64,000 nt of DNA, taken from positions 25,905-89,904 of the forward strand of contig JAURLI010000052.1 in NCBI GenBank assembly GCA_030831315.1. The letters are read 5' to 3'. A program made the position numbers and the translations under genes. The stretch is from Alphaproteobacteria bacterium (GTDB lineage: Bacteria; Pseudomonadota; Alphaproteobacteria; SMXQ01). Below the pieces are notes generated by a model. The model saw nothing but the letters and a program-made list of their open reading frames with translations. It ran no database searches and was not told where the DNA came from. Positions 7,899 to 38,593 of the stretch are shown here, piece after piece (position 1 is the stretch's first letter; each line of letters begins with the position of its first letter).

Positions 7899-9206
7899 TT
7901 ACTTGCAGTCCACGTTGGCGGCTTCCTTGGCGCCTTCATTCGGCAGGGTGACGTTGCACTCCATGCCTTCCTTGAAGGCGCTGCGGTTGGCCGCCTTGCC
8001 GGCGACGGTGATCTTGGTGCGCGAGCCGGAAATGCCGGTCTGCACGTCCTTGCCGCCGACGCTGACGGCGATCTTGCGGCCGCCCTCGATGACCTTCGAG
8101 ATCTTGCCCGAGAACTTGGGCTGCTCGACCTTGGCGGTCTGGGTGGGGCCCTTGAACTTCAGCATGTCGTCGAGCTTGGCCAGCGCCGACTTGGGCTGGG
8201 CCGCCATTTCGGCGACGATCTTCTGGATCTCTTCGCCGGTGATCAGGTCGACGTCACGCTTGAGCTTCTTGGCTTCCGCCTGGAACTGAGCGTCCTTGGC
8301 GGTGGCATCGAAAGCAACGCGCATCGCCTTGACGCGGTCGGCCGGAACCTTCGCCGCCATCGCAAACGGGCGGCCCATGACGCGCACGCCCATCAGGATC
8401 TGGAAATAGGCGGAGGCCTCTTCCTGGGTGACACCCGCACCAAGGTGCTTGCCGGTTTTGATCACGTCGAAAACGGTCGGCACGCCCATCTTGGTCAGCT
8501 CGGGCACCGGCTTGACGGTGAGCTGGATGATCGGCTTCAGGGTGCCTGCGCGTATCATCGGGCCGCCCTGGTCGCTGAGCGACGCCCAGGACTGGCAGAT
8601 GCCATCGACTTCGCCGCGTTCGATCGCGAGGTGGATAGGCGGCGTGGACGGATAGCCCTTGATCAGGCGGAACTTGCCGCCGAGCGCGTTGTTGATCAGC
8701 GCGGGGTTGATTTCGGTGTCGTTCGGACCCGTGCCGCCCATGATGAAGGTGCGGGTGAAGACTTCCTCGAACGACTTAATGCTCGTGCGCGTCGCGATGG
8801 CGCAGGCGCCCGGCTCGTCGGCAAGGCTGCCCAGCCAGTTGAGTTCGACGGACTTGAACTTGGGACCCTTCTGGCCCATCAGTTCGGCCATCGCGGCGTT
8901 GCGCTGCATGCCGGCGATCACGGTGCCGTCCTTGGGCGCGACGTTGAAGACGTAGTTCGCCATGACGATGGAGCCGGCGCCTTCCATGTTCTTCACAAGG
9001 AAGCCCGGGTTGCCGGGGATATGGCGGCCCATGTGGCGCGACAGCATACGCGCGTAAACGTCATAGCCGCCGCCCGGACCGGAACCGACCAGCAGCTGGA
9101 TCCGCTTGCCCTTGTAGAAATCGGCAATGGCGTCGGCTGAGGCGGGGCCTGAGGCAAACATGCCGCACAGGGCCGCCGCAGCGGTCATGATGTGGGGAAA
9201 ACGCAT
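7899..9206 (-). CDS. Bug/TctC-family substrate-binding protein with ~110 aa C-terminal Lys/Gly-rich two-Cys extension (paralog 1)
   Basis: Signal peptide plus full TctC core (DFYKGKRIQLLVGSGPGGGYD ... IKGYPSTPP); extension KISKVIEGGRKIAVSVGGKDV...SGSRTKITVAGK...KEGMECNVTL...VDCK. Confidence 0.85.
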   Translation of the reverse strand: MRFPHIMTAAAALCGMFASGPASADAIADFYKGKRIQLLVGSGPGGGYDVYARMLSRHMGRHIPGNPGFLVKNMEGAGSIVMANYVFNVAPKDGTVIAGMQRNAAMAELMGQKGPKFKSVELNWLGSLADEPGACAIATRTSIKSFEEVFTRTFIMGGTGPNDTEINPALINNALGGKFRLIKGYPSTPPIHLAIERGEVDGICQSWASLSDQGGPMIRAGTLKPIIQLTVKPVPELTKMGVPTVFDVIKTGKHLGAGVTQEEASAYFQILMGVRVMGRPFAMAAKVPADRVKAMRVAFDATAKDAQFQAEAKKLKRDVDLITGEEIQKIVAEMAAQPKSALAKLDDMLKFKGPTQTAKVEQPKFSGKISKVIEGGRKIAVSVGGKDVQTGISGSRTKITVAGKAANRSAFKEGMECNVTLPNEGAKEAANVDCK

Positions 9207-9309
9207 GGAAGACTCCCTAGTAAATTGAGTGAAAGAGCCGGGTTGGCGGTTCTAACCGGCCCCGTCGGGGGACGCAAGCTGGCTGTGGCTATATGGCTAC
9301 AAAGTGGCG

Positions 9310-9343
9310 CAAAAAAGGCACCCCCAGAAAACCGGGGGTGCCG
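9310..9343 (-). terminator. Rho-independent terminator after paralog 2
   Basis: GGCACCCCC-loop-GGGGGTGCC with A6 on plus (U-run on minus) 40 nt after stop at 9382. Confidence 0.6.
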
Positions 9344-9381
9344 AAGAGCCGCGAAAGCCGCGGATACTGGGGTTCAGGTGA

Positions 9382-10692
9382 TCAGCCCTTGCAGTCGACT
9401 ACCGTGGCTTCCTTGGAACCAGGCGGCAGGCTGATCGCGCAGGTCATGCCTTCCTTGAACGCCGAACGCTTGGCGTTCTTGCCGCCCACCTTGATCTTCG
9501 TGCGCGAGCCGGAAATCTTGGCCGACACCTTCTTACCACCAGCATCGACGGTGATCTTGCGGCCGCCCTTTTCGATCTTGGTGATCTTGCCGGTATGCTT
9601 CGGGATCTCGACCTTCGCGGTCTTGACCGGGCCGTGCCACTGGCTCACGTACTCGAGCTTCTTCAGGACGTCCTTCGGAGCCGAAGCCATCTTTTCGACG
9701 ATGTCCTGAATTTCATCGCCGGTGACGAGGCTGAGATCGCGGCCCTGCTTATTGGCCTCTTCGACGAACTTCTTGTCCTCGGTCGTCTTGTTGAAGGCGT
9801 TACGCAAAACCTTGACCTTGTCGGCCGGCACCTTGGGGCCGAGCGCGAAGGGACGGCCCATCGTCTTGGTCGCCATTAGCAGGCGGAACAGGGTGCGAAC
9901 CTGATCCTTCGTGTAGCCGGGCTGTAGACGGTTCTCATCGACGAGATCCATCAGCAGCGGCACGCCCTTGGCCTTGAGCTCAGGCAGCGGCTTCAGCGAC
10001 AGCTGGGCCAGCAGCACCATTTCGCCCTTCGCATAAAGGTTTGACTGGTGTGCAAAGGACGCCCAGGACTGGCTGATGCCGTCGACCTCGCCGCGCTCCA
10101 TCGCGAGATGGGTCGGCGGCGTGGACGGATACCCCTTGATCAGGCGAATCTTCGCGGCCAGCGTGTTGGCGATCAGGGCGGGGTAGAATTCCGTGTCGTT
10201 CGGGCCGGTGGAGCCGAACAGCACTTCCTTCCCGTACATGTCCTCGAACTTCTTGATGCCGGCGCGCTTAGACACCGCGATGATACCGACTTCGTTGTTG
10301 AAGCTGCCAAGCCAGTTGAGTTTGGTCGCCTCAAATTTCGGGCCCTTCTGGCCCATGATCTGGACGATCGGCGCATTGCGCTGCAGCGAGGCGATCACCG
10401 TGCCGTCCTGGGGGGCGACGTTATAGACGTAGTTGGCGGCGATGATCGAGCCGGCGCCGTCCATGTTCTTGACGATGAAATTGGGGTTACTGGGGATATG
10501 GCGCCCCATGTGGCGGCCCATCATGCGGGCATAGGTGTCGTATCCGCCGCCGGGGCCAGAGCCGACATAAACTACGATGTCCTTGCCTTTGTAGAAGTCA
10601 GAAATCGCATCAGCATGGGCAGACAAAGCAAAAACAGATGTCATCGCAAGAACTGCGACAGAATAGTTGCGGAATTTCCGAACAATTTTCAT
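9382..10692 (-). CDS. Bug/TctC-family substrate-binding protein with C-terminal two-Cys extension (paralog 2, tandem to paralog 1)
   Basis: Same core and extension architecture as 7899..9206 (GKITKIEKGGRKITVDAGGKKV...SGSRTKIKVGGK...KEGMTCAISL...VDCKG). Confidence 0.85.
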   Translation of the reverse strand: MKIVRKFRNYSVAVLAMTSVFALSAHADAISDFYKGKDIVVYVGSGPGGGYDTYARMMGRHMGRHIPSNPNFIVKNMDGAGSIIAANYVYNVAPQDGTVIASLQRNAPIVQIMGQKGPKFEATKLNWLGSFNNEVGIIAVSKRAGIKKFEDMYGKEVLFGSTGPNDTEFYPALIANTLAAKIRLIKGYPSTPPTHLAMERGEVDGISQSWASFAHQSNLYAKGEMVLLAQLSLKPLPELKAKGVPLLMDLVDENRLQPGYTKDQVRTLFRLLMATKTMGRPFALGPKVPADKVKVLRNAFNKTTEDKKFVEEANKQGRDLSLVTGDEIQDIVEKMASAPKDVLKKLEYVSQWHGPVKTAKVEIPKHTGKITKIEKGGRKITVDAGGKKVSAKISGSRTKIKVGGKNAKRSAFKEGMTCAISLPPGSKEATVVDCKG

Positions 10693-10936
10693 TGTGAATT
10701 ACTCCCAGATGTTTTGCGTTCGGGGCGTTTCTGATTGTTGTTATTTCTTAAAAGGATAGCGATATTCTGACCATGATCAACCCCGCGCGATAAATTTGTC
10801 ATAATCTATTCAAATTATTGAGGACAAAGCGAGATTTCCGCTGTTTTGATTGATCCCATTGCGTCTTGATGCTCCGGGCTGCTCCGGTTAACAAGGAATC
10901 GAACGGTCTTTAATTGCCTGTGGCGGGGCCAGGGAA
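10693..10936. promoter_or_regulatory. AT-rich divergent intergenic region (promoters for 9382..10692 and 10937..12328)
   Basis: ~244 bp markedly AT-rich relative to ~65% GC surroundings; contains TTGACA-like and TATAAT-like hexamers. Confidence 0.5.
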
Positions 10937-12328
10937 ATGGTGAAACAGGTCAAATCGGGGTCCAAAAGTACAGCCGGGCTTCCGGAGGAAATCGGCAGAA
11001 AGAGGGCCGAAGCGGTGTCTCGCACGGTGATCGGGCGCAAGCGGCGCAAGACCGTGCAGCGGGAGGATGTTTTCCGCATATCCGCGCTCGGCCTCGACTG
11101 GGATATCGGCGTCATGACCTATAGCCCGGCCGGTGCGGTTACCCGCGGCGCCGATGGCCGCAAGGCCGGCTTCTTCCTGCTGCACGGTGGCAACGGCGAT
11201 TTCAAGTCGGTCGAGCCGCTGGCGCTGCTGCTCAGCCAGCGCTTCGGCTACAAGGTCGTATCGATGACCTTCCCCGGCCGGCTTTATCTGCCCGACCCGT
11301 CGCGGGACTGGCCCGGCGACACGATAGAATCCGACGGTGCCGCACGGATGCCGATCTGGAAGAAGGGCGAGGTCATCACCCGCGACCAGTACGATCTGGT
11401 TCACGACGACAAGCTGCGTGCGCGCTATGGCATCCGTACCTTTGCACGCGCCCGTCCGAGAACCTTGTTCCATGAGCGCATGGCGGCCTGGCCTGTCGCC
11501 TTCGAGGACGGAATGCTCGAAGCGTGCCGAAGGCATTTTCCCGCCGACGAGTTCTCGGTCTATCTGCACGGCCATTCGACGGGCGGCGCCTTTACGGCGA
11601 TCCTGAGCCAGCGACTCGAGAACTGCGCGGGCCAGACCGAAGTGGAAACCGCGCCCATCGGCGTCATTAACCGGGCCAAGCACGCATGGTCAGGTTCGAT
11701 GGGCAAGATCAAGGGTTACGCCAAGGCCGGGCCGAAGGAACCCGACGACGTCCTTCACGATCCATTCACTGATCTTTATCTGCGCACCTGGCGTGATCGG
11801 GCACGCTATTCGGGGCCCGAGGCGCTGGGACGGGAGGGAGCGGCGGCGCTGATGCGTCTGCCCTGGCTGATGGAAGAAATCCTAGACGGCTGGCAGGAAG
11901 AACGTCTGCGCCCGCAGTTCAAGGCGGAATTCCCCGTGACCCATAACGTCGAGGGGACGCTGGCAAAGGCCGCCCGCGTGGCGGCGCGCAGGCTCGGTCT
12001 GGGCCGGAAGGAAACGCGGGCACTGGTGGAACGCTACCTTGATTACGGGCGCTATCGCACAGGGAAGAACGCGCGTCCGGTGCCGCCCGTCTATTTCGTC
12101 AATTCGCGGCTGAGCCGCGACAACTCGGAAGAAGCCTTTAGCGCCGTCGTCATTCCGATGCTGAAAGCCTTGCGTCCCGCGCCGCAGGTGCATCTGACCA
12201 TGGTCGATGCGGGCAGTCATATCTACATGGAGCCAGATGGCCCCGCGCTGCCCATGGGCATAGCGCCCGTAGCGGCGTATCTTTTCGATGAAGCGGTGCG
12301 CGGCGGTTTTTTCGCCCAAGCCGGGTAG
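10937..12328 (+). CDS. Hypothetical alpha/beta-hydrolase-fold protein (463 aa)
   Basis: LHGGNGDF oxyanion-like and LHGHSTGG nucleophile-elbow motifs; unusual N-terminal basic region; start codon uncertain. Confidence 0.55.
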   Translation: MVKQVKSGSKSTAGLPEEIGRKRAEAVSRTVIGRKRRKTVQREDVFRISALGLDWDIGVMTYSPAGAVTRGADGRKAGFFLLHGGNGDFKSVEPLALLLSQRFGYKVVSMTFPGRLYLPDPSRDWPGDTIESDGAARMPIWKKGEVITRDQYDLVHDDKLRARYGIRTFARARPRTLFHERMAAWPVAFEDGMLEACRRHFPADEFSVYLHGHSTGGAFTAILSQRLENCAGQTEVETAPIGVINRAKHAWSGSMGKIKGYAKAGPKEPDDVLHDPFTDLYLRTWRDRARYSGPEALGREGAAALMRLPWLMEEILDGWQEERLRPQFKAEFPVTHNVEGTLAKAARVAARRLGLGRKETRALVERYLDYGRYRTGKNARPVPPVYFVNSRLSRDNSEEAFSAVVIPMLKALRPAPQVHLTMVDAGSHIYMEPDGPALPMGIAPVAAYLFDEAVRGGFFAQAG

Positions 12329-12344
12329 AACTCAAGAGGCCTGA

Positions 12345-12979: not shown

Positions 12980-13015
12980 CCGGGTCCGTCCCCTCGGACC
13001 CGGCTTCTTTTTTTC
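12980..13015 (+). terminator. Rho-independent terminator (shared region with convergent peroxiredoxin gene)
   Basis: CCGGGTCCG-loop-CGGACCCGG followed by CTTCTTTTTTT. Confidence 0.6.
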
Positions 13016-13526
13016 AGACTTCCCCGCGGGCCGGTTCGCCGGTTTCGGTCATGCGCGCGATGGTGTCGATGATGTCGTCGGGGTAGGGGCGCATGCGTTG
13101 CATGGAATTGATGACGACGAACTGCACGGTGCCGTCGGCGCGGATGAGAAAACAAGCCGGCTCGCTGAACAGCGGCGCCTCGTCGGGGCGGATCGGCGTT
13201 GACAGAAACAGGTCCCAGTCCCGTGCGGTTGCGGTGTCCATGCCGTAGGCAACCGCGACGCGCTTCAACTCCCACTCCTTCTTCGTACGTTCCGCCGCCT
13301 CACGGTCATCCATGCTGATGGCGACGATCCCCGTGCCGAGCGCGTCGAGCTTGTCCATCTTCTGGTCAAGATCGCGCAGTTGGCCCCGGCAGCGCTGGCA
13401 GAAATGCCCACGGTAGAACATCAGGAGAGTGAACTTTTCCGCCTTGTGCGCATGCAGCTCAAAGCGACCGCCGCCCGCGAGCGGGAGATCGAGCGCAGGG
13501 GCCTTCTGGCGGGGCATTACGGTCAT
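13014..13526 (-). CDS. Peroxiredoxin (AhpC/TSA / redoxin family)
   Basis: Thioredoxin-fold motifs FTLLMFYRGHFCQRC and ACFLIRADGTVQF; start taken at internal ATG (MTVMPRQ). Confidence 0.7.
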   Translation of the reverse strand: MTVMPRQKAPALDLPLAGGGRFELHAHKAEKFTLLMFYRGHFCQRCRGQLRDLDQKMDKLDALGTGIVAISMDDREAAERTKKEWELKRVAVAYGMDTATARDWDLFLSTPIRPDEAPLFSEPACFLIRADGTVQFVVINSMQRMRPYPDDIIDTIARMTETGEPARGEV

Positions 13527-13689
13527 GGTCGTGGTCCCTTGGATGTTCGTGGGCGGCACAAAAGGCGCAGATGCGACGCCTCTGGAATGGTTGGCACCAA
13601 GCCCCCATTTTGTAACAATGACCGAATATAACGTGGAGCGGCACCGCCGACCACAGGAGCGCCGCCCGATACGTCAGGAGGCAGCAGAC

Positions 13690-14041: not shown

Positions 14042-14842
14042 TCAGAACACCCGGTTGATGCCTTTCCACAGCAGGATGAGCGCGCCCACCATCAGCACGA
14101 TCTGGAAGGCGTTGTAGAACCGCTTCGCGTCGGCGCGGTGAAAGAACCGGATGCCGGCCCACGCACCCGCGAGCGAGAGCGGTAGCAGAAACAGGGATTC
14201 CACAACGAGCCGCCACGACACCAGGCCGATAGCGATGGATACCACCAGTCGCCAGAACAGGATGATCGCGCCGATCAGGATCGAGGTTCCGCGAAACAGC
14301 GTCGGCGTCGGGCAGGCGAGCTTCAGGTAAACCGACAGCAGGTACATGCCGCCGCCGCCCGCGACGCCTGCGATCAGACCGCTGACCGACGACAGGCCGA
14401 GCGCCACGTCGAAGCGGGTCAGGTCGACCCGCTGCGCCAGCCGGTCGAGCATTTTGTAGCGGTCCATCATCGCGATGCCCAGCATCGCAACGCCAAGGAA
14501 GATGGTGAGCCAGCCCGGCTCAAGCTTTTCGAAGATGAACGTGCCGACGGTGATGGCGACCATGCTGGACAGCAGCAGCGGTTTCACCAGTTTCCAGTCG
14601 CCGTGCTTCAGGCCGAAGGGCGCGATCTGCGCCTGCGCCCAGGTGCCGGTCGCCAGCGCCAGCATGACCGCGTGATGGGGTTCGAGGATGATCGAGGAAA
14701 AAACGATGGTCGGTGCCACCGCGCCGAAGCCGAGCGCCCCGCGCACGCTGGCCAGAATGCCGTAGATCGCCATCAGGGCGACGATCTGGAAAGCGCTCAG
14801 GGCGTGGAACGGAGCGAGGTCCGGCGGGAAGAGTTCGGCCAT
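14042..14842 (-). CDS. TauE/SafE family sulfite exporter (DUF81 membrane protein)
   Basis: Multi-pass membrane protein with two repeated halves; start trimmed to MAELFPPDLAPF (ATG 14842) from 366-aa ORF. Confidence 0.7.
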   Translation of the reverse strand: MAELFPPDLAPFHALSAFQIVALMAIYGILASVRGALGFGAVAPTIVFSSIILEPHHAVMLALATGTWAQAQIAPFGLKHGDWKLVKPLLLSSMVAITVGTFIFEKLEPGWLTIFLGVAMLGIAMMDRYKMLDRLAQRVDLTRFDVALGLSSVSGLIAGVAGGGGMYLLSVYLKLACPTPTLFRGTSILIGAIILFWRLVVSIAIGLVSWRLVVESLFLLPLSLAGAWAGIRFFHRADAKRFYNAFQIVLMVGALILLWKGINRVF

Positions 14843-15062
14843 CAGGGTTCGATCGGGAAAGGGGACCTGAAACCAGGCGGGAGTCAGGTGATAAACCTTC
14901 CCCCGGTCCCGGTCAGTAATAATTCTCCTTCGCGGGGGAAAACCCCGAAACCGCAGGGTTTCCGGGCCCGGTTGCGGGGGCCGGGGTTTTGCACTAGAAC
15001 GGGCACGGAAATGGTATGTTGCCGGTTGGCACGTATGTAAAAGGGCAGGAAAGGCTTCGAAA

Positions 15063-15941
15063 ATGGCGTCTGCAAATCCCTCTCTCCATCTCGCGAACGA
15101 TTCCATCCCGGCCCCCGCGGGCGTCCGGGTCAAGGCGATCAAGCCGGCGGTCGGCTCCTACATTTCCGGCTATCGCTTCGACGGCAACACGGTGTCCGAT
15201 GACTTCCGTGCTTCCATGCGCGAATTGCTGCATACGCGCGGCCTCGTCGTCTTCGAGCCGGGCACCGTCACGGCCGAAAATTTCACCAGGTTCGCGGGCT
15301 TCCTCGGCGAGTTCTTCAACTACGCGGGTCCGCACACGCCGCGCGCGCCTGAAAACCCCGACGCGACCATGATCAGCGCCTCCAAGGACGCCCATCTTCG
15401 CAATCACGTCTGGCATGCCGACGGCGGTTTCCGCGCCGATGCGCCGGCGTTTACCGCTCTGTTCGGCAAGCAGATCCCCGATTCGGGCGGCGACACGATG
15501 TTTGCGAACGCGGCCCATGTCTACGACATGCTCGATCCGCTGTTTGCGCAGTATCTCGAAACCCTCAAGGTGGTTCAGTCGCCCGACGCCACCGGCCACA
15601 TCACCGACCGCTATCTCGATCCCGAGGAAGCGGCCCAGGCGCGTCTGCGCATGCCGCCGTTCGAAATGCCGCTGATCCGCGTGCACCCGGTGTCGGGCCG
15701 CAAGTGGGTGGCGATCAACGAATCCTACGTCTGCTACATCAAGGGCGTCGGCCGCATCCACAGCCAGAACATCCTCGGCATCCTGTTCGACATGATCAAG
15801 TCGCCCGAAGCGACCTGCCGCGTCGAATGGGAGCAGGGTGCGCTTGCCGTATGGGACAACCGGGTCGTGCAGCATCGCGCGATCAAGGACTACACCAGCA
15901 ACGCCACGCGCATCCTCTACCGCTGCACAATGACGGCGTGA
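15063..15941 (+). CDS. TauD/TfdA-family Fe(II)/2-oxoglutarate dioxygenase
   Basis: WHADGG (HxD) facial-triad block and C-terminal VWDNRVVQHRA block. Confidence 0.8.
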   Translation: MASANPSLHLANDSIPAPAGVRVKAIKPAVGSYISGYRFDGNTVSDDFRASMRELLHTRGLVVFEPGTVTAENFTRFAGFLGEFFNYAGPHTPRAPENPDATMISASKDAHLRNHVWHADGGFRADAPAFTALFGKQIPDSGGDTMFANAAHVYDMLDPLFAQYLETLKVVQSPDATGHITDRYLDPEEAAQARLRMPPFEMPLIRVHPVSGRKWVAINESYVCYIKGVGRIHSQNILGILFDMIKSPEATCRVEWEQGALAVWDNRVVQHRAIKDYTSNATRILYRCTMTA

Positions 15942-20029: not shown

Positions 20030-21394
20030 TCAGGCGCGGGTGAGGGGGCGCAGCTCGCGCAGGTCGGCCACCGATTCGAGCGCCAGAACCTTGCCGATCA
20101 GGGCTTCGGTGCGCTCAGGCCCAAGGATGGGCGCGATCAGGTCGCGGGCCTTGGCGGCAACCTCGTCCTCGGTCATCGGGTTCTGCGCGGTGCCGCGCAC
20201 ATGCACGGTTTCGTGGGTGAGCTTGCCGGTCCTGGCGCTTTCCAGCTCGATCACCCCGGCGCGGCGCGGCAGGGTGGGGTCGGCCACCATCTTGATGCGT
20301 TCGCGCAAGGCACGCACGCGCGCATCCTTCATGCGTTCGTAATCGTGGGTCGAGACGAAGGTCAGCGTGCCGTCGATCATGAGAACCGCCATCAGGTGCT
20401 GAAGGCAGATGTCGGGCATGGTGCGGTCGTCGACGATATGGGCCTCGACCGCGGGGACGCGGGCGGTGACCGCGCCGACGTCGTCGGGGGCGAGGCCGTT
20501 TTCCGCCATCAGGTGCTGGAGCGAATCGAGCAGCGCCTGGCAGGGTGAGCCCACGGTCCATTTCTTGATGTTGGCGTTCATGATCTCGTATGTCGCGCCG
20601 AGCTCGCGCGCGATTTCATCCAGATTGCCGCCGTAGGCCTGGAAGAAGCCGCGCTCGCCGGTAAAGACATCCTCGACCCCGGTCATGCCGGAAGCCACCA
20701 TCTGCGCCGCCGCGACGCCGTGTTCGGCGCCCATGCCGCCGAAGTCGAAGGCCTTTTCCACGTGTTCGGAATCGCGCGCCCATGAACCGAGGCCCGAGGC
20801 CATCTGCGCCGTGTAGGACAGAAGCCAGCGGCACTGATCGGCATCGAGGCCGGCGAGCGAACCGGCAGCCGCCGCCGCGCCGAACTTGGCGCCGAAGCTG
20901 TGGGTGGAAAAGCCCTGCTTGCCGTAGAAGCGCTCGACGCCGAGGGCGAGGTTGATGCGCGCGCCGACGTCATAGCCGAGCGCCACCGCATTGACGACCG
21001 CGCGGCCCGATGTGCCGCCCCGTTCCGCCATTGCCCAGGCGGCGGGCACGATGGCGCAGCCGGGATGGAAAAAGGCGGTCGGGTGGGAATCATCTGTTTC
21101 GTCCGCATGCGCCATCATGCCGCCCGCGAGTGCGGCAAGACGCGCAGATGTCTCGATCCCGGTGCCGGGCAGAAGCACTTCGGTCCGCGCGCCTTCGGCG
21201 GCGACGAAGGCGAGAGCCATTTCGCCCGGCTTGAGGCGCGCGCCCGAGATCATGGCGGCGAGGCTGTCGAGGATATGCAGCCGCGTCTTGGCGGCGACAT
21301 GGGCGGGAAGCGCCGACTTTGCCGCGCCCGCCATATGGGCGGCGAGCGCCGCCGTCTGCGGGGAAACCGCCCCGCCGGAAGCCGCCCCCGCCAT
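20030..21394 (-). CDS. MmgE/PrpD family protein (2-methylcitrate-dehydratase-like)
   Basis: 454 aa from ATG 21394, which overlaps the tctA stop; PrpD-family length and blocks. Confidence 0.75.
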   Translation of the reverse strand: MAGAASGGAVSPQTAALAAHMAGAAKSALPAHVAAKTRLHILDSLAAMISGARLKPGEMALAFVAAEGARTEVLLPGTGIETSARLAALAGGMMAHADETDDSHPTAFFHPGCAIVPAAWAMAERGGTSGRAVVNAVALGYDVGARINLALGVERFYGKQGFSTHSFGAKFGAAAAAGSLAGLDADQCRWLLSYTAQMASGLGSWARDSEHVEKAFDFGGMGAEHGVAAAQMVASGMTGVEDVFTGERGFFQAYGGNLDEIARELGATYEIMNANIKKWTVGSPCQALLDSLQHLMAENGLAPDDVGAVTARVPAVEAHIVDDRTMPDICLQHLMAVLMIDGTLTFVSTHDYERMKDARVRALRERIKMVADPTLPRRAGVIELESARTGKLTHETVHVRGTAQNPMTEDEVAAKARDLIAPILGPERTEALIGKVLALESVADLRELRPLTRA

Positions 21395-22905
21395 CAGTCT
21401 TCCAGCACGCGGCCTTCGGGCTTCATGCGGCTGACCATTCTGTTGATGCCCTTGAAGATCAGCGGTCCGAAGAAGCCGAGCAGGGTGAAGAACAGGAACA
21501 GGTCGACGATCCAGCTTTCGAAGAAACGGAACCAGTTGTTGTCGAAAATGATCATCGACTGGGACCAGAATTCCTCGACCAGGCGGCCGAGGATCAGTCC
21601 CATGACGAAGGGTGCCGGGCCGAAGCCGTGGCGCAGCATGACGAAGCCGAGAAGCCCCGCGAGAAGCATCACCCAGACGTCGAACACCGACTGGTGATAG
21701 GCATAGGCACCGATCATCGAGAAGACGAACACCGCGGGCCACAGAAGCTGGCGCTTGACCAGCGTGATGCGCGCGAACAGCTTGGCGCCGGGCAGGCCGA
21801 TCACCAGGAACAGGATGTTGGCGAGGAACATCGCCGTGAAGATCGCATAGACGAAATGGGGCGTGTTCTGCACCAGGTAGGGACCCGGGCGGAAGCCGTG
21901 GACCATCAGCGCGGCGAGGATGATCGCGGTGGTGCCGGAGCCGGGAATGCCGAGCGCCAGCGTCGGCACCATGGCGCCGCCGGTGGCGGCGTTGTTGGCC
22001 GCTTCAGGCCCGGCGATGCCTTCGATGGCGCCCTTGCCGAATTCCGACTTGTTCTTGGACCAGCGCTTGGCCTCGTTGTAGCCGATGATGGCGGCGACGG
22101 TGGAGCCTTCGGCGGGCAGGATGCCGATGAAAGTGCCGATGACGGACGAGCGCAGCATGACCCAGCGCAGCTTCACGATTTCGGCCCAGCTCGGCAGCTT
22201 GATGGCGACCGACTTGATGCGCTCGACATGTTCATTGAGCCGCTGCGACTGGTTGAGCAATTCGCCCATGGCGAACAGGCCGATGAGGACGGGCACGAAG
22301 CTGATACCTTCGACGAATTCGGAGACGCCAAAGACGAAGCGCTCGACGCCGGTGGTCAGGTGAACGCCGATGGTCGAGACCAGAACGCCGAAGGCGCCCG
22401 CGATCAGGTTTCTGAGCGATGACTTGCCGGAAATGGAGGCGAGCATCGACAGGCCGAACAGCGACAGGGCGAAATATTCGGGCGGCCTGAACGACAGCGC
22501 GACCTTGGCCAGCAGTGGTGCCGCGAGAATGAACACCACCAGCGAGAACATGCCGCCCACGACCGACGACACCGCGGCGATGCCAAGCGCGCGTCCGGCC
22601 TCGCCCTTCTGGGCGAGCGGATAGCCGTCGAGGGCGGTGGCCACCGCGGGCGGCGCGCCCGGGGTGTTGATGAGGATCGCGGTGATCGAGCCGCCGAAGG
22701 TGCCCGCGCAGTAAAGCGCCGCCATCATGGCGATGGCAGGGATGGGCGGCAGTTGCAGGGTGAACGGCAGCAAGAGGGCGACCGCCATGGTCGACGACAG
22801 GCCGGGCAGCGCGCCGACGAGCACGCCGAGCAGCACGCCCACCAGGATCAGGAAGAAATGATAGGGCACGAGGATGAGGCCGATGCCCTGAAGAATCGGT
22901 TCCAT
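21394..22905 (-). CDS. tctA: Tripartite tricarboxylate transporter permease TctA
   Basis: 503 aa polytopic membrane protein, duplicated GxxPG-containing halves typical of TctA. Confidence 0.85.
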   Translation of the reverse strand: MEPILQGIGLILVPYHFFLILVGVLLGVLVGALPGLSSTMAVALLLPFTLQLPPIPAIAMMAALYCAGTFGGSITAILINTPGAPPAVATALDGYPLAQKGEAGRALGIAAVSSVVGGMFSLVVFILAAPLLAKVALSFRPPEYFALSLFGLSMLASISGKSSLRNLIAGAFGVLVSTIGVHLTTGVERFVFGVSEFVEGISFVPVLIGLFAMGELLNQSQRLNEHVERIKSVAIKLPSWAEIVKLRWVMLRSSVIGTFIGILPAEGSTVAAIIGYNEAKRWSKNKSEFGKGAIEGIAGPEAANNAATGGAMVPTLALGIPGSGTTAIILAALMVHGFRPGPYLVQNTPHFVYAIFTAMFLANILFLVIGLPGAKLFARITLVKRQLLWPAVFVFSMIGAYAYHQSVFDVWVMLLAGLLGFVMLRHGFGPAPFVMGLILGRLVEEFWSQSMIIFDNNWFRFFESWIVDLFLFFTLLGFFGPLIFKGINRMVSRMKPEGRVLED

Positions 22906-22914
22906 GGTCGGATG

Positions 22915-23451
22915 CTATCCCAGTATCGGGGCCAAGAGCCCGGGGAGGAAATGAACCTTGAGGCCGTTGACGAAAATCAGCCGCACGGTGAGGGGGAACA
23001 GGATGGCGAAGGGCAGGATCACCCAGAGGCGCCGCTCGTTCCACAGGATCGGCAGCAGCAGGCAGGCGAGAACCATGCTCAGGTCCGTACCCAGCCATTC
23101 GAACAGGGTGACGATCAGGACAAGCGCAAGCGCCGTGATGAAGGTGATCGAAACGACCTTGTTGCTTCGTTCTTCATCGAGGTCCGCACCCTTCTTCTTC
23201 TTGAAGTGGTTTTCAAAGGGCAGGTAAAGCGACATCGCCATGATGCAGCCGAGGATGATGCGCGGGAAGAATGTCGGCGGGACGTTCTGGCTCAGCTGCG
23301 CGGCGACGGTGTCCCAGCGCGTGGTCTCAAACCAGAGAGCCGCGCAGGCGACGAGAATGATGATGGTAATCCAGAGATCGGTACGGTGCACGAAGGGCGC
23401 ACTTCTGCGCGCGCCCTTCGCACCCGTCGATCCGGCGTTGCCGGTGGTCAC
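22915..23451 (-). CDS. tctB: Tripartite tricarboxylate transporter small subunit TctB
   Basis: 178 aa, four hydrophobic helices, between tctC and tctA. Confidence 0.75.
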   Translation of the reverse strand: MTTGNAGSTGAKGARRSAPFVHRTDLWITIIILVACAALWFETTRWDTVAAQLSQNVPPTFFPRIILGCIMAMSLYLPFENHFKKKKGADLDEERSNKVVSITFITALALVLIVTLFEWLGTDLSMVLACLLLPILWNERRLWVILPFAILFPLTVRLIFVNGLKVHFLPGLLAPILG

Positions 23452-23472
23452 GGAAATATACTCCGGCTTCCG

Positions 23473-24510
23473 TTATTTCTTCTTCTTGAGGAGGCCGAGC
23501 TCGCCCAGCGCTTCGCGGGCAATCTTGATCTCTTCCTGGATCTGGTCGGTCCAGACCTTGGAGCCGGCCGGGCTGGTCTTCGGATCGAGGCCCGAGCCGC
23601 GCAGGTAGCCCGCGAAGACGTCATGCTTCATCGCGGCCAGAATGCCCTTTTCCAGCGCCTTGATCACTTCCGGCGGCGTGCCGGCCTTGACCGCATAGCC
23701 GCGGGTCGTGGTGACCGTCAGCTGCCAGCCCTTTTCATGGCTGGAGGGGACGTTCTTGTAGGCAGGCAGCCGCGCCTTGTCGAGCAGCAGCAGCGGGCGA
23801 ACCGTGCCGTCCTCGATCTGGCCGCCGGCTTCCGAGACGTTCGGCAGGGTCGCGTCGATGGCGTTCGACAGCAGCGCCTGAACCATCTTGCCGCCCGAGC
23901 CGAAGGGCACGACCTTGAACTTGATGCCCGCCGCCTTGGCAAAACGCGCAAGGCCGACGTGCTCGGTGCCGCCGATCTGCGACACGCCCCAGTTCAGCGG
24001 CTTGTCCTTGGAGGCGGCAATCAGTTCCTCGATCGTCTTGTACTTGCTGTTCTTGCCGACGACGATGAAGGTCGGATCGTCCATGGCGCGCGCCACGCCG
24101 ACCAGTTCCGGGCCCTTCAGCGGCGATTTGCCGAGAGCAATTGTGTAGAAGTGCGTCTGGGTCAGCGCGATCAGGGTGTGGCCGTCGGCCGGGCGCGACA
24201 TCAGGTATTCATGGGCGACCTTGCCCGAGCCGCCGCGCTTGTAGACGACGTTGATGACGGCGCCGGTGTCCTTGTATTCCGGGTTGCCCTTCGCCAGTTC
24301 ACGGCGCGAGCGGATCATCATCATGCGGGCGGTGACGTCGGTGCCGCCGCCGGGTGCGGCGTGGCTGATGATCTGGATTTCCTTGGTCGGGAACTTTTCC
24401 GCGGCAATGGCGGAGCCTGCATAGGCGCCGATCGTGAAAGCGGCGGCGAGGCCGGTCGCCATGCCAAGGCGTGCGGCCGTCGTGGAAACGGTTGTGGTGT
24501 GGATTCGCAT
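23473..24510 (-). CDS. tctC: Tripartite tricarboxylate transporter substrate-binding protein TctC (canonical, 345 aa)
   Basis: Signal peptide and TctC core; heads a tctCBA-prpD operon; no C-terminal extension. Confidence 0.85.
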   Translation of the reverse strand: MRIHTTTVSTTAARLGMATGLAAAFTIGAYAGSAIAAEKFPTKEIQIISHAAPGGGTDVTARMMMIRSRRELAKGNPEYKDTGAVINVVYKRGGSGKVAHEYLMSRPADGHTLIALTQTHFYTIALGKSPLKGPELVGVARAMDDPTFIVVGKNSKYKTIEELIAASKDKPLNWGVSQIGGTEHVGLARFAKAAGIKFKVVPFGSGGKMVQALLSNAIDATLPNVSEAGGQIEDGTVRPLLLLDKARLPAYKNVPSSHEKGWQLTVTTTRGYAVKAGTPPEVIKALEKGILAAMKHDVFAGYLRGSGLDPKTSPAGSKVWTDQIQEEIKIAREALGELGLLKKKK

Positions 24511-24649: not shown

Positions 24650-24668
24650 CAACCCGTCAATCGGGTTG
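24650..24668. promoter_or_regulatory. Perfect 7-5-7 inverted repeat CAACCCG-tcaat-CGGGTTG (candidate operator)
   Basis: In divergent intergenic region between tctC (minus) and the rhodanese gene (plus), ~40 nt upstream of ATG 24708. Confidence 0.4.
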
Positions 24669-24707
24669 GGGCTTGAAAAATCAGGGTTTTCCACAGCAGA
24701 TTTCGAT

Positions 24708-32144: not shown

Positions 32145-33428
32145 ATGACGACAGTTCTCAGAACCGCTTTTCTCGGTGCGCTGTTCGCGTGCCTGTCGGT
32201 TTTTGCGGTCCTTTCGCCCGCGAAGGCCGATGCGGTCGCCGATTTCTACAAGGGCAAGAATGCGCAGATGATCATCGGATCGTCGGCGGGCGGCGGCTAC
32301 AACCAGTATGGCCGCCTGGTCGCCCGTCATATCGATCGGCACATCCCGGGCCATCCGTCGATCGCGGCCAAGAACCAGCCGGGCGGCTCCGGGCGCAAGG
32401 CGCTCAATTACGTTGCCAACGTTGCCAAGCCCGATGGCCTGACCATGGGCATCGTCAGCCGCAACACGCATTTCGACCGGCTTCTCTACGGGGACAAGTC
32501 GGTTGACGTCGATTCGACCAAGCTGGTCTGGCTCGGCAGCGCCAACAGCGAGGTGTCGCTCTGTGTGTCCTGGCACGCAACGCCCATCAAGACGATCCAG
32601 GATGCCCGCAACGGCATGACCATCGGTTCGTCGGGGCCGGTCGCCACCGATACGCTGATGGCGCGCATCCTCAACCAGATTGCTGATACCAAGATCAAGG
32701 TCATCCTCGGCTATCCGGGTTCGACCGAAGTGCATCTGGCGCTCGAGCGCGGCGAAGTGACGGGCCGTTGCGGCTTTGGCTGGGACAGCATCGTTTCGCG
32801 CTACTACGACTGGATCAAGGACAAGAAGATCAACCTGCTGGTGCAGCTTGCCACCAACAAGCATCCGGACCTTCCCAACGTTCCGTCGTTCAAGGACTTC
32901 GCCAAGACCGATACCGAACGCCAGATGCTGCAGATCTTCACGCTGCCCAATGAAATGGGACGTCCCTTCTTCGCTCGTTCGGGCATCCCGGCCGACCGCG
33001 TGAAGGCGCTGCGCGCTGCATTCGTGGCGGCGATGAAGGATCCGGCGCTGCTGGCGGAAGCAAAGAAGCAGCGTCTCGCCATCGAGGCACTCGACGGTGC
33101 CACGGTCGAAAAGATGGTGAAGGAGGTCTACGCCAGCCCCGCCGAAGCGGTGAAACTGGCGGCATCCATCGTGAACACGACGGAGAAGCTCGAGAAGCGC
33201 AAGGAGAACTTCTACACCGTCAGCGTCTCGCTGGGTGCGGTGAAGAAGAAAGGCCGCGAGCTGAGCTTCATGGAAAAGGGCAAGGAGGCGAAAGCCGTCC
33301 TCACCCGCGCGACCAAGGTTACGGTCGGCGGCGAGAAGGCCAAGACCTCGAAGCTCAAGGCCGGAATGACCTGCGACGTCACCTACGAAGGCAACCTGTC
33401 GGTCGCCAAGTCGGTCGCCTGCAAGTAA
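32145..33428 (+). CDS. Bug/TctC-family substrate-binding protein with C-terminal two-Cys extension (paralog 3, most divergent)
   Basis: TctC core to ~aa 330, then KKGRELSFMEKGKEAKAVLTRATKVTVGGEKAKTSKLKAGMTCDVTYEGNLSVAKSVACK. Confidence 0.8.
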   Translation: MTTVLRTAFLGALFACLSVFAVLSPAKADAVADFYKGKNAQMIIGSSAGGGYNQYGRLVARHIDRHIPGHPSIAAKNQPGGSGRKALNYVANVAKPDGLTMGIVSRNTHFDRLLYGDKSVDVDSTKLVWLGSANSEVSLCVSWHATPIKTIQDARNGMTIGSSGPVATDTLMARILNQIADTKIKVILGYPGSTEVHLALERGEVTGRCGFGWDSIVSRYYDWIKDKKINLLVQLATNKHPDLPNVPSFKDFAKTDTERQMLQIFTLPNEMGRPFFARSGIPADRVKALRAAFVAAMKDPALLAEAKKQRLAIEALDGATVEKMVKEVYASPAEAVKLAASIVNTTEKLEKRKENFYTVSVSLGAVKKKGRELSFMEKGKEAKAVLTRATKVTVGGEKAKTSKLKAGMTCDVTYEGNLSVAKSVACK

Positions 33429-33445
33429 AACGCCGTTTGGCGGAA

Positions 33446-35175: not shown

Positions 35176-35291
35176 TCTTTTCCGGCTTGCCCCCTGCCCA
35201 GGCCTTAACCTGTCGTTGAGGAATAGGGGGCATTCTGCCTGCAGATTTGGCTTATCCCGCCCGCGAAAGGGCGGTCCTGTGGGGGAGCCCA

Positions 35292-35642: not shown

Positions 35643-35853
35643 TTCCCGGCGTTTCCGCGCCTTCCGAATCGTTTTGACAGTGCCGAGAGCGGCGCGGCAT
35701 CATCGCGCCAATCCCGGCCGCTTGTGGCCGGGCGATTTGCAAGCTCTGGCTTGGCGCAAATGTGCATGCCACCGGCATCGTGCCGGGGTATGGGCCCCCG
35801 AAGAAGGCCGCGTTCCAGCAACACCTCGCCGCCTTCTTTTGGGAGACACGAAA

Positions 35854-37119
35854 ATGACATTCTCATTGCGCGCGCGCGCCTTACTCGGCGCGGCAGTTTC
35901 GTTCGGCCTTGCCTCTACAGCATCGGCGGAGACGCCCGCCGAATTCTTCAAGGGCAAGACCGTCAACATGTACATTTCCTCGGGCGCGGGCGGCACCAAC
36001 GATGCCTATGCGCGCCTGATCGCCGAACACATCACCCGGCACCTGCCGGGTCAGCCCAACGTGCTGCCGCGCAACATGCCGGGTGCGGGCGGGCTGAAGG
36101 CGACGAAGTACCTTTATACCGTCGCGCCCAAGGACGGGCTCGCGATGGGTGTTGTGCAACGCGCCGTCGCGGTGCAGCCGCTGCTCGGCATCAAGGGGGC
36201 GGATTTCAATCCGCTCGAATTCAACTGGGTCGGCTCCACCGCCCAGGAAGTTTCCGTCGCGGTCGCCTGGAAGACTTCGAAGGTTCAATCGATCAAGGAG
36301 GCCGTGCAGAACGAACTGGTGGTGGGTTCGTCCGGCGTCGGCAACGACACCGGCGCGTTCCCGCGCGTCGTGAATTACTTCCTCGGCACCAAGGTTCGCC
36401 CCATCCACGGCTATGTCAGCGGCACCGACATCACGCTGGCCATGGAGCGCGGCGAAGTGCATGGCCGCTTCGGCTGGTCGTGGGGCTCGCTCAAGAGCCG
36501 CGAAGCGCGCTGGCTCAAGGACGGCTCGATTAAGGTCATCCTGCAGATGGGTCTCAAGAAGGCGCCAGACCTCGATGCGCCGCTGGTGCTCGATCTCGCC
36601 AAGACGCCCGAGGACCGCAAGGCGATGGAAGTGATCTTCGCCGCCACCACCATCGGCTGGCCGTCGCTGTTGCCGCCGAAGGTGGCCGCCGAACGCGTCG
36701 CCGCGTTCCGCGCCGCTTATGCCGCGACCGTGAAGGACCCTGCCTTCGTGAAGGGGGCGGAGAAGCGCGGGCTTGAGCTCGATCCGTTGAGCGGCGAGGA
36801 AATCCAGTCGATCATCGCCAACATCTATGCGTCTTCGCCCGACATCGTCGAGCGCGCCCGCAAGGCCTACGCGCCGGGCGGCAAGGTCGAAATGGCGAAG
36901 GTCCTCAACGCCAAGGGCAAGATCGCCAAGATCAACAAGAAGGGCACGCGCATGACCATCGATGACGGCAAGGCCAAGGTCGAGGCGCGCATCGCCGGTG
37001 ATACCAAGATCACCATTGCCGGCGAAGCGGCCAAGCGCGAGGCGCTCAAGCAGGACTTGACCTGCGCGGTGACGCTGGTGGCTTCCGGCGCGGTTGCGCA
37101 CGCGGTTACCTGCGATTGA
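35854..37119 (+). CDS. Bug/TctC-family substrate-binding protein with C-terminal two-Cys extension (paralog 4)
   Basis: ATG 35854 with GGGAGA RBS; signal peptide; TctC core; extension GKIAKINKKGTRMTIDDGKAKVEARIAGDTKITIAGEAAKREALKQDLTCAVTLVASGAVAHAVTCD. Confidence 0.85.
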   Translation: MTFSLRARALLGAAVSFGLASTASAETPAEFFKGKTVNMYISSGAGGTNDAYARLIAEHITRHLPGQPNVLPRNMPGAGGLKATKYLYTVAPKDGLAMGVVQRAVAVQPLLGIKGADFNPLEFNWVGSTAQEVSVAVAWKTSKVQSIKEAVQNELVVGSSGVGNDTGAFPRVVNYFLGTKVRPIHGYVSGTDITLAMERGEVHGRFGWSWGSLKSREARWLKDGSIKVILQMGLKKAPDLDAPLVLDLAKTPEDRKAMEVIFAATTIGWPSLLPPKVAAERVAAFRAAYAATVKDPAFVKGAEKRGLELDPLSGEEIQSIIANIYASSPDIVERARKAYAPGGKVEMAKVLNAKGKIAKINKKGTRMTIDDGKAKVEARIAGDTKITIAGEAAKREALKQDLTCAVTLVASGAVAHAVTCD

Positions 37120-37142
37120 CCGTATTGCAGGTGTATTTGTGA

Positions 37143-37170
37143 AAGGGCGGGGGATTCCCCGCCCTTTTTC
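37143..37170 (+). terminator. Rho-independent terminator after paralog 4
   Basis: GGGCGGGGG-att-CCCCGCCC-TTTTT. Confidence 0.7.
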
Positions 37171-37330
37171 TTGCTTAAAGCCGGGTTTGACTCGCGTCAT
37201 TCAGTCGGGGCATCATTTTCCATAATTCGGGCCATCGCCCCAAGATCAAGAAACCGCCACGACAGGAACGCGGCGCCCGACAGCGACGCCTGTTTCTGGC
37301 CAATAACGAACAACGACACGGAGGCCAGTC

Positions 37331-38593
37331 ATGAACCGCTTTCAAACCATCAGTGTATTCGCGTTGGCAGCCCTTGGCGCGGGCCTGAGCCAGCCGGCAG
37401 GTGCTGCACCCGAAGACGTGCTCAAGGGCAAGAACGTCAACATGTTCATTTCGTCTGGCGCGGGGGGAACCAACGATACCTTCGCCCGCCTGATTGCCGA
37501 TCACATGGCGCGTCATTTGCCGGGCCAGCCCAATATCCTGCCGAAGAACCTGCCCGGCGCCGGCGGGCTCAAGGCGGCCAAGTTCCTCTATACCCAGGCG
37601 TCGCGCGAAGGCCTGTCCATGGGCGTGGTGCAGCGTTCCATCGCGGCGCAGCCGCTTCTCGGCATCAAGGGCGCGGATTTCAACCCGCTCGAGTTCAACT
37701 GGATCGGTTCCACCGCATCCGAAGTTTCGGCGGGCGTGGTGTGGAACGCACCCGAAATCAAATCGATCCAGGATGCGCTGCAGAACGAAGTGCTGATTGG
37801 ATCGTCCGGCGTGGGCAACGACACCGGGGCGTTCCCGCGCGTCGTGAATTATTTCCTCGGCACCAAGCTGCGGCCGATCCACGGCTATATCTCGGGGACC
37901 GACATCATCCTTGCCATGGAGCGCGGCGAGGTGAAGGGCCGTTTCGGCTGGTCCTGGGGCTCGGTCAAGAGCCGTGAGCCCAAGCGTCTCAAGGATGGCA
38001 CCATCAAGGTGCTTTTGCAGATGGGCATCAAGAAGGCGCCCGATCTCGACGCGCCGCTGGTGCTCGATCTCGCCAAGAACGAACAGGACCGCAAGGCCAT
38101 GGAAGTGATCTTCGCACAGGTCACCATCGGCTGGCCGTCGCTGCTGCCGCCGAAGGTCCCGGCCGACATGGTCAAGGCCTACCGCGACGCCTACAAGGCG
38201 ACCATGAAGGATCCGAAGTTCGTGAAGGGGGCGAAGGATCGCAGGCTCGACCTCGATCCCCTTTCGGGCGAGGAAATCCAGTCGATCATCGCCAATATCT
38301 ACGCCTCGCCGCCGGAAGTGGTGACGCTTGCCCGCAAGGCCTATTCGCCCGGCGGTAATATCGAGATGGCGAAGATCCTCAAGGTCAAGGGTCCGATCGC
38401 CAAGATCAACAAGAAGGGGTCCAAGCTGACCATGACCGTCGACGGCAAGAAGGTCGATGCGCGGGTCGCCGGGCGCACGAAGATCACCATCGCCGGCAAG
38501 AAGGCGGAACGAAAGGCGCTGAAGGCCGGGATGACCTGCACGATGTCGCTGGTGGCATCGGGCGCGGTCGCCCAGAAGATGGCCTGCAACTGA
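37331..38593 (+). CDS. Bug/TctC-family substrate-binding protein with C-terminal two-Cys extension (paralog 5, tandem to paralog 4)
   Basis: Extension GPIAKINKKGSKLTMTVDGKKVDARVAGRTKITIAGKKAERKALKAGMTCTMSLVASGAVAQKMACN; core highly similar to paralog 4. Confidence 0.85.
   Translation: MNRFQTISVFALAALGAGLSQPAGAAPEDVLKGKNVNMFISSGAGGTNDTFARLIADHMARHLPGQPNILPKNLPGAGGLKAAKFLYTQASREGLSMGVVQRSIAAQPLLGIKGADFNPLEFNWIGSTASEVSAGVVWNAPEIKSIQDALQNEVLIGSSGVGNDTGAFPRVVNYFLGTKLRPIHGYISGTDIILAMERGEVKGRFGWSWGSVKSREPKRLKDGTIKVLLQMGIKKAPDLDAPLVLDLAKNEQDRKAMEVIFAQVTIGWPSLLPPKVPADMVKAYRDAYKATMKDPKFVKGAKDRRLDLDPLSGEEIQSIIANIYASPPEVVTLARKAYSPGGNIEMAKILKVKGPIAKINKKGSKLTMTVDGKKVDARVAGRTKITIAGKKAERKALKAGMTCTMSLVASGAVAQKMACN

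Follow-up and report, generated by a model that had tools for sequence, protein, structure and literature searches.

The TTT transporters are the least understood among the binding-protein-dependent secondary transporters, and in these systems a few membrane units are shared by dozens to hundreds of 'orphan' binding proteins. Their binding proteins, the TctC/Bug family (PF03401; BugD, BugE, Bug27, TphC/TBP, MatC and AdpC), have the same exported two-lobe fold as the proteins described here and, as with these, many 'orphan' paralogues adjoin catabolic enzymes. The first-pass annotation of the present locus took Bug proteins to be normally single-domain; congruently, every solved TTT binding protein that we found is a single-domain protein of 288–302 residues, and the literature searched describes none that carries an additional domain. 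A secondary-transporter binding protein that, like ours, carries extra non-ligand domains is on record in a different binding-protein family: BP0403 of Bordetella pertussis, a multi-domain 'elongated' TAXI-TRAP binding protein that was noticed by its unusual length (PMC12344293). In this case the extra domains are N-terminal and consist of a globular alpha/beta part and a helical dimerisation region, the protein has a lipoprotein anchor, and its partner is GltS, not TctA/TctB (PMC12344293).

We analysed a window of 64 kb, the whole stretch of DNA under study, in which the earlier tally of seven TctC-like genes stands. Five of them encode proteins of 420–436 aa, hereafter the long forms, and all five proposed ORFs were present. 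Proteins 1 and 2 lie on the minus strand (7899..9206, 435 aa, and 9382..10692, 436 aa), while proteins 3, 4 and 5 lie on the plus strand (32145..33428, 427 aa; 35854..37119, 421 aa; and 37331..38593, 420 aa), the last two in tandem. The length of protein 4 is counted from the ATG at 35854, which we judged to be the sensible start; the mechanical ORF opens upstream at a TTG at 35674. The long forms are mutually alignable along their full length and, as read from the sequence, all five begin with a Sec-type signal peptide with an AxA-like site. The two remaining genes are short, and the alignment agreed with the earlier observation that both end where the extension starts. One (576..1586, minus strand, 336 aa) encodes a paralogue of the same binding-protein subfamily, without the module, whose core branches amid those of the long forms. 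The other (23473–24510, 345 aa) is the tctC gene of a canonical tctC-tctB-tctA operon (21394..24510, minus strand), with TctB at 22915–23451 and TctA at 21394–22905; the three products scored 82.3 bits with Pfam TctC, 64 bits with TctB and 518 bits with TctA. The only TTT membrane components in the window are those of this operon, and none of the five long forms adjoins a membrane component, this sole tctBA pair being 9–12 kb away.

Our results showed that a long form consists of a Sec signal peptide, a divergent two-lobe TctC-type core and a C-terminal OB barrel of ~80 residues. The assignment of the cores to the Bug/TctC type held by profile and by fold, but not by the Pfam TctC model, with which proteins 1 to 5 gave no score, no score, 26.9, 20.2 and 20.9 bits, respectively, all below the 27-bit cut-off. 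The family profile reached solved Bug/TctC chains at E=2e-9 (2dvz, 7ndr, 4x9t, 8hka and 2qpq), and its matches include BugE, TphC, TBP and Bug27. Protein 2 was chosen for AlphaFold2 (AF2) modelling, and its full-length model reached a mean pLDDT of 90.8 and a pTM of 0.80. When an AF2 model was compared with solved structures using Foldseek, the top 17 matches were all TTT binding proteins (E from 1e-15 to 2.5e-10), the best of them with a TM of 0.77–0.82 on the target. Moreover, the core keeps the Gly-rich PGGG-x-D loop of the family, which could be aligned to the window's canonical TctC. What sets the long forms apart from the solved TctC/Bug proteins is the addition of one or two OB domains and a sequence too divergent for the Pfam cut-off.

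Next, we delimited the C-terminal extension. The claim that it is conserved and alignable across all five proteins was correct, but the proposed length of 85–110 aa was not: the module comprises ~78–82 aa and follows a linker of ~10 aa. It spans residues 355–435 of protein 1 (7902..8144, minus strand; module HMM E=3e-30), 356–436 of protein 2 (9385..9627, minus strand), 349–427 of protein 3 (33189..33425, plus strand; E=2.6e-23), 345–421 of protein 4 (36886..37116, plus strand) and 345–420 of protein 5 (38363..38590, plus strand). A weak module match was also observed at 51352–52545 of the window; the gene encodes a membrane-fusion protein of the HlyD type, and we did not count it as a module carrier.

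The pair of invariant Cys reported earlier is conserved in the five window modules, with a spacing of 16–17 residues across the family. These Cys are the only invariant columns among 39 diverse modules, in which four Gly, one Arg and one Ala are nearly invariant as well, and at least two Cys were found in each of the 115 full-coverage modules from the library representatives. Few surface residues are conserved family-wide among the 39 modules, which disfavours a conserved small-molecule pocket. Members of the main clade share an SGSRTK loop and, close to strand 1, a His, but these are conserved neither family-wide nor across the five window paralogues. The internal duplication suggested in the first-pass annotation did not survive a comparison of the two halves by hhalign, which returned a probability of 5% over 14 columns and a score of 11.7, versus 4.0–10.1 for 30 column shuffles. 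The supposed repeat is a short strand-plus-Gly/Lys-turn motif and not a duplication.

The expectation that the extension would be beta-rich agreed with AF2, which predicted with confidence a small OB-fold barrel. DSSP assigned strands to residues 63–67 and 77–81 of the module model, with the Cys at 64 and 80, and to residues 416–420 and 430–434 of the full-length model, with Cys 417 and 433. In these models the last two, adjacent antiparallel strands form a hairpin on which both Cys would face each other in register, and a structural disulfide between them is most likely in the periplasm. Among solved folds, Foldseek placed CusF, generic OB domains and a self-assembly domain of an S-layer protein nearest to the module, and a sequence search of the PDB with the module profile gave nothing below E=1. 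A faint likeness to TOBE/Mop domains, proposed earlier, holds at the level of the fold only, since no TOBE HMM matched and many other OB-folds matched better; furthermore, the TOBE/Mop domains of ABC ATPases and of ModE/ModG are cytoplasmic, whereas the module is part of a periplasmic protein that starts with a signal peptide.

To place the module among known families, the module alone, the full proteins and the 39 diverse modules were compared with Pfam and NCBIfam, and no existing model matched the extension. Only scattered sub-threshold matches were found (MSSS SH3, DUF1344 and GpP-like), with no consistent family among them: DUF1344 (PF07076) matched one of the 39 modules at E=0.05, with 13.8 bits against a cut-off of 23.1 bits, and the DUF5666 model gave zero direct matches at E<=5 to either the five modules or the 39. 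The domain had been described as unrecognised, and as far as Pfam and NCBIfam models go this is right, but it is not an orphan. The module profile matched the tandem-array proteins P0122, P0126, P0161 and P0236, with E-values down to 3.9e-27; three of these four pass the Pfam DUF5666 cut-off and two pass that of CusF_Ec. When the module was aligned by hhalign with the repeats labelled DUF5666 or CusF_Ec, the match reached 97.7% (E=1.9e-12, 72 columns). At the level of sequence profiles, these results showed that the module belongs to the DUF5666/CusF-like secreted OB domains, of which it forms a remote branch that had not been modelled before.

Both relatives share features with the module and differ from it. 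The tandem-repeat proteins of DUF5666 (PF18914) contain a homologous small barrel, are likewise secreted, and have in common with the module the pattern T-x-I-x-x-x-G-x-x-A-x-x-x-x-L-x-x-G-M (strand, turn and short helix); however, the module occurs singly or doubly on a binding protein and not in arrays of 5–9, its Cys pattern is different and it is very basic. CusF (PF11604) is, like the module, a periplasmic OB barrel of ~80 residues, with a TM of about 0.6 by Foldseek, in which its entries 3e6z, 2vb2, 2qcp and 1zeq took ranks within 2–7. The periplasmic adaptor SilB reportedly has a CusF-like domain fused at its C-terminus, and the architecture of the long forms would then have a precedent. 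In contrast, there is no direct HMM match between CusF and the module, whose context is organic-acid transport and not metal efflux. The CusF ligands His36, Trp44, Met47 and Met49 are absent from the modules, in which Asp/Ala and Ser/Arg/Thr/Lys occupy these positions according to a low-confidence alignment with a CusF sequence; the five window modules contain no Trp and at most one His each.

We then studied how widely the module is distributed. A module-profile search of 1.84 billion proteins retrieved 451 cluster representatives at E<=1e-3, of which 168 reached E<=1e-10, indicating that the module of the five paralogues is not due to chance. More than 3,400 homologues were found; nearly all of the best 120 listed are ~435–440 aa long, and the named ones among these come from uncultured Alphaproteobacteria. 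With thousands of metagenomic homologues, the architecture is not rare. Some binding proteins carry two modules (P0121, P0125 and P0230), and the module is also found in tandem arrays within unrelated secreted proteins. A search for stand-alone copies, proposed earlier as a check, was successful as well. Because many of the apparently 'stand-alone' library matches of 70–270 aa were N-terminally truncated fragments of long forms, a free module was counted only if it had a signal peptide of its own; P0186, P0224, P0267 and P0149 are of this kind, and families of free modules of 95–104 aa were found as well. The module is thus an autonomous unit that occurs once or twice on binding proteins and also as a free secreted protein of ~100 aa. 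In a tree of 137 core sequences, the long and short forms are intermixed, with about 16 parsimony changes between them.

The relation to the membrane components was examined in the loci that contain tctA and tctB genes. In L085 and L086 the gene order is long tctC, free module, tctA and tctB. Congruently, an independent sample of the same lineage (L094) displays tctC with its module, a free module and tctA, the contig ending inside tctA. In three other loci (L040, L076 and L039) a long form lies 51–220 nt upstream of TctA or of a fused TctA-TctB, and the membrane genes associated with long forms follow the order tctC-tctA-tctB, frequently with a TctA-TctB fusion. However, short-form members adjoin the same kind of TctA/TctB genes (L015, L028, L062 and L073). 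We therefore rejected the idea that the module marks a distinct clade or TctA type; since the two forms interleave and both stand beside TctA/TctB, docking cannot strictly require the module, which is dispensable for transport itself. The identity of the domain and its association with TTT systems are very probably correct.

In the reading that we prefer, the module would be an accessory periplasmic component in a subclass of TTT transporters, usually very basic and stapled by a disulfide, that takes no part in binding the transported solute. Its role would rather be to tether the binding protein to an acidic surface, which may be that of the membrane or the periplasmic side of TctA/TctB, and tethering would let many paralogous binding proteins reach scarce membrane units. 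Taken as a whole, the identity of the OB module together with this account of docking or tethering in TTT transport has a probability of roughly 0.45, a compromise figure; the docking or tethering mechanism by itself is tentative, with the odds against it. A further proposal is that a large TTT subclass has a fourth component, so far overlooked, in the form of the module, which would be needed for the coupling of binding proteins to a TctA-TctB membrane unit. Cells would provide it either in cis, as part of the binding protein, or in trans, as a secreted protein of ~100 aa; it might form a bridge to TctB, for instance, or raise the local concentration of the many paralogous binding proteins near the membrane. 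We regard this proposal as unlikely. A link to a sensor kinase, suggested in the first-pass annotation, is speculative.

The charge of the module bears on the tether. Over its ~80 aa it has a median net charge of +12 to +14, and its charge density (0.17, versus 0.036 for the core) exceeds that of the core in 68 of 70 proteins. Nevertheless, certain modules are uncharged overall or acidic, with net charges as low as −9, and a purely electrostatic tether cannot therefore be universal. Core charge and module charge correlate across lineages (rho 0.80), which indicates that the basic character is partly a lineage trend. Overall, the core charge is +13 in long forms versus +2 in short forms; the notion that long-form cores are inherently more basic was discarded, as within the loci that hold both forms the difference is gone and slightly reversed, pointing to a lineage effect.

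Two other readings were considered quite unlikely. According to the first, the module is a self-association domain, by which the binding proteins would be dimeric or oligomeric, or would be joined among themselves and with the free module. The long tandem arrays of the domain in other secreted proteins, its variable copy number and the lineage that has a cis module plus a free trans copy are all consistent with self-association, and a multi-domain dimeric TAXI binding protein has been described (PMC12344293). However, the S-layer domain found by Foldseek is just 16–18% identical to the module, with numerous unrelated OB-folds scoring nearly as high, and very basic domains of like charge would repel each other unless bridged by anions. 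According to the second, which we hold to be similarly improbable, the module has no specific partner and is a stabilising or solubility appendage, or a neutral accretion spread by the lineage-specific expansion of paralogues. The repeated change between presence and absence of the module inside the subfamily fits this possibility, as do the presence of both forms beside TctA/TctB, the low surface conservation family-wide and arrays of tandem paralogues, for instance the 7 copies within 17 kb of L074, in which rapid gene duplication would carry along any appendage. Against it stand the retention of the module in thousands of proteins at 30–60% identity with invariant Cys, its occasional doubling and a separate gene with its own signal peptide that is kept inside the TTT operon in independent samples, which is hard to explain without a function.

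Finally, a second ligand site or a CusF-like carrier, passing a metal or an anionic small molecule to the core or the transporter, is very unlikely: CusF ranks among the top Foldseek matches, related tandem repeats match Pfam CusF_Ec, a conserved Gly-Met-x-Cys motif is accompanied by a second Cys, the main clade retains the SGSRTK loop and strand-1 His, and the strong positive charge would draw carboxylates, but the four CusF ligands have no counterparts in the low-confidence alignment, the loop and the His vary even among the five window paralogues, Gly-Met is also general in Cys-less DUF5666-type repeats, and periplasmic Cys pairs are, as a rule, in the oxidised state.

Docking or tethering of TTT binding proteins is the role that we tentatively prefer for the module. 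The current Pfam and NCBIfam models miss both the binding-protein subfamily and the domain appended to it, and as a result these genes are annotated as 'hypothetical'. With its placement on TTT binding proteins, a DUF5666-type OB domain gains its first defined functional context. Moreover, a module that is present on thousands of TTT binding proteins, and that in at least one lineage is also encoded by a separate gene intervening between tctC and tctA, provides a handle on docking, tethering and oligomerisation in this transporter family.

The five long forms, binding proteins of the tripartite tricarboxylate transporter (TTT) type in which a core is followed by a C-terminal module, were all found as ORFs where the first-pass annotation had placed them, at 7899-9206 (−, 435 aa), 9382-10692 (−, 436 aa), 32145-33428 (+, 427 aa), 35854-37119 (+, 421 aa; the mechanical ORF start is an upstream TTG at 35674) and 37331-38593 (+, 420 aa). 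All five start with a hydrophobic N-terminal signal peptide that has an AxA-like site at its end, and a full-length alignment holds across them. When aligned with them, the two shorter relatives, one from the same subfamily (576-1586, −, 336 aa) and one a canonical TctC (23473-24510, −, 345 aa) of the tctC-tctB-tctA operon (24510-21394, −), stop exactly where the extension starts, as had been claimed. The neighbours of the long-form genes are catabolic enzyme genes (ornithine cyclodeaminase-like, Amidohydro_2, cupin, two dienelactone hydrolases and a PrpD-like protein), surroundings that match those of 'orphan' Bug genes in the literature (PMC5812351, PMC5994714).

Sulfur and redox genes also gather around the binding-protein genes of the window (6252-6890, −; 13014-13559, −; 14042-15142, −; 24666-26318, +; 27420-28286, −). 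They encode a methionine sulfoxide reductase, an AhpC/TSA peroxiredoxin, a TauE-type sulfite exporter, a four-rhodanese-domain protein and a TauD-family dioxygenase, and a second TauD gene was called in the flank (L001). Divergent from the tandem long-form pair lies a 463-aa ORF (10937-12328, +) with no Pfam match, whose GHSTGG motif resembles the nucleophile elbow of alpha/beta hydrolases; the ORF stays in place in L001-L003, three further assemblies of this sequence.

The 'Bug/TctC' label proved right in kind, but the long forms fall under the cut-off of the current Pfam TctC model (0-26.9 bits against 27, that is, under it or with no match), whereas the canonical TctC of the window scored 82 bits. 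NCBIfam gave no name to any of the five. A profile of 73 family members matched solved Bug/TctC chains (BugE at 2e-9, also TphC, TBP and Bug27), and solved TTT binding proteins occupied structural ranks 1-17 for the AF2 model of the protein at 9382-10692 (pLDDT 90.8, pTM 0.80; E down to 1e-15, target TM up to 0.82). Since these matches, together with a Gly-rich PGGG-x-D loop that aligns with the same loop in canonical TctC, place the cores there, they are a divergent TTT binding-protein subfamily.

The extension is conserved and alignable in all five proteins, as first described, but the module proper covers ~78-82 residues behind a linker of ~10 residues. Its two cysteines, reported as invariant, are kept in all five modules; they form the only invariant columns across 39 diverse modules, and at least two Cys occur in 115/115 full-coverage modules among library representatives. 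The proposed internal duplication was not supported, as a half-versus-half comparison reached 5% probability over 14 columns, little more than column shuffles did. Modelled alone (AF2, pLDDT 86.7), the module is a six-strand barrel with a short helix ahead of the fifth strand. The cysteines occupy mirrored positions on the final two DSSP strands both in this model (strands 63-67 and 77-81, Cys 64 and 80) and in the full-length one (416-420 and 430-434, Cys 417 and 433), which suggests that they may form a structural cross-strand disulfide. The top Foldseek ranks were an S-layer self-assembly domain and E. coli CusF (TM about 0.6); the former, as the top structural match, would fit a rival reading of the module as a self-association domain.

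Consistent with the claim that the extension is not a known domain, neither the five modules nor the 39 diverse modules had a Pfam or NCBIfam match, and a PDB sequence search with the module returned none. A profile of the five modules gave 451 matches at E<=1e-3 in 1.84 billion representative proteins. Among the best were four long secreted proteins with 5-9 tandem copies each, in which Pfam placed DUF5666 (P0126, P0236 and P0161) and CusF_Ec (P0122 and P0126) above the cut-off, with a weaker CusF_Ec match, under the cut-off, in P0161 (21.5 bits). Because the repeats labelled in this way match the module at the profile level (97.7%, E=1.9e-12, 72 columns), the module is a remote, unmodelled branch of the DUF5666/CusF-like secreted OB domains. 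The later DUF5666-type repeats of P0122, P0126 and P0161 have a two-Cys pattern of their own, unlike that of the binding-protein module, with one Cys immediately preceding strand 1 and the other within an F-C-R-E motif. The module could also be a second ligand or metal site. Counterparts of the CusF metal ligands (His36, Trp44, Met47 and Met49) are absent from it. Since conservation across the family extends to few surface positions, we infer that it does not bind solute.

A weak module-profile match to an HlyD/CusB-type membrane-fusion protein of the window (E=0.008) was rejected as spurious. Its gene follows a 1070-aa ORF (48143-52545, −, for both), and the pair would fit an RND-type efflux operon.

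The long architecture is common. A search at E<=1e-5 gave more than 3,400 homologues, and almost all of the best 120 listed are ~435-440 aa long; those listed are labelled 'hypothetical' by NCBI and 'TctC' by JGI. A scan of GTDB species representatives gave 80 loci, all from MAGs and nearly all labelled Alphaproteobacteria (including Rhodospirillaceae, Hyphomicrobiaceae and Beijerinckiaceae), and in 80/80 a binding protein of ~410-440 aa ends in the module. Long-form genes often stand in tandem arrays, for instance seven in 17 kb at L074. Some binding proteins carry two modules (P0121, P0125, P0230), and free modules with their own signal peptide exist in families of 95-104 aa. Many shorter matches considered as stand-alone forms were merely truncated gene calls. 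In P0131, P0208 and P0260 a signal peptide and the first binding-protein residues lead directly into the last helix and the module; these are internally deleted genes or else assembly chimeras.

The module is very basic: its net charge has a median of +12 to +14 per ~80 residues (range −9 to +28), and its charge density exceeds that of the protein's own core in 68/70 cases (0.17 vs 0.036). Module charge follows core charge across lineages (rho 0.80). Core net charge is itself strongly lineage-dependent (about −10 to +26, loci L005-L084), and the parallel trend suggests that periplasmic proteins have shifted in charge across whole lineages. Long-form cores seemed more positive than short-form ones, but this excess is taken as a lineage effect because it vanishes within loci that hold both forms.

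A genetic link to the membrane subunits recurs among relatives. At L040, L076 and L039 a TctA or fused TctA-TctB gene is preceded, at a distance of 51-220 nt, by a long form. The strongest case is L085/L086, with the order long tctC, 103-aa signal-peptide-plus-module gene, tctA, tctB. The same order is seen in an independent sample (L094) until the contig ends within tctA; as their free modules are closely similar, these loci belong to one lineage. Other free modules adjoin unrelated genes (a LysE exporter, a ring-hydroxylating dioxygenase cluster, cupin/OCD genes). TctA/TctB genes adjoin short forms from this subfamily too (L015, L028, L062, L073), and a neighbour-joining tree of 137 cores intermixes the long forms with the short ones (about 16 parsimony changes), both of which count against an obligatory role of the module.

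Single-chain TctA-TctB fusions, TctA first, exist at 679-688 aa, with both domains detected by Pfam (L040:9332-11371, +; L039:1894-3960, +); a 678-aa gene at the end of L085 has both by precomputed Pfam matches. Three candidates of 671-708 aa were judged by length (L015:245-2260, −, where the Pfam scan gave TctA alone; L062:5699-7795, −; L073:5784-7910, −). Gene order at fusion-bearing loci is tctC-tctA-tctB versus the canonical tctC-tctB-tctA of the window. A 2018 review mentions only one TctAB fusion (PMC5812351). At L085 (5433-7963) a DDE transposase gene lies directly upstream of a long-form tctC without its N-terminus, so that an insertion appears to have truncated it; the free module gene and tctA-tctB are still intact, and that organism's free module (P0281) has lost the first Cys.

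The long forms are thus exported TTT-type binding proteins that carry, as an add-on, an OB barrel akin to DUF5666/CusF, an autonomous domain with an invariant Cys pair and a recurrent link to TTT operons. The module may serve to dock or tether the binding protein to an acidic partner surface, which would be either the membrane or TctA/TctB on their periplasmic side. It might instead be a non-specific stabilising appendage. Every solved TTT binding protein recovered in this analysis has a single domain, unlike the long forms, and no member with an additional domain is described in the literature searched; the nearest precedent is BP0403, a multi-domain TAXI binding protein reported in 2025. This domain architecture, undescribed in the sources searched, is real and widespread.
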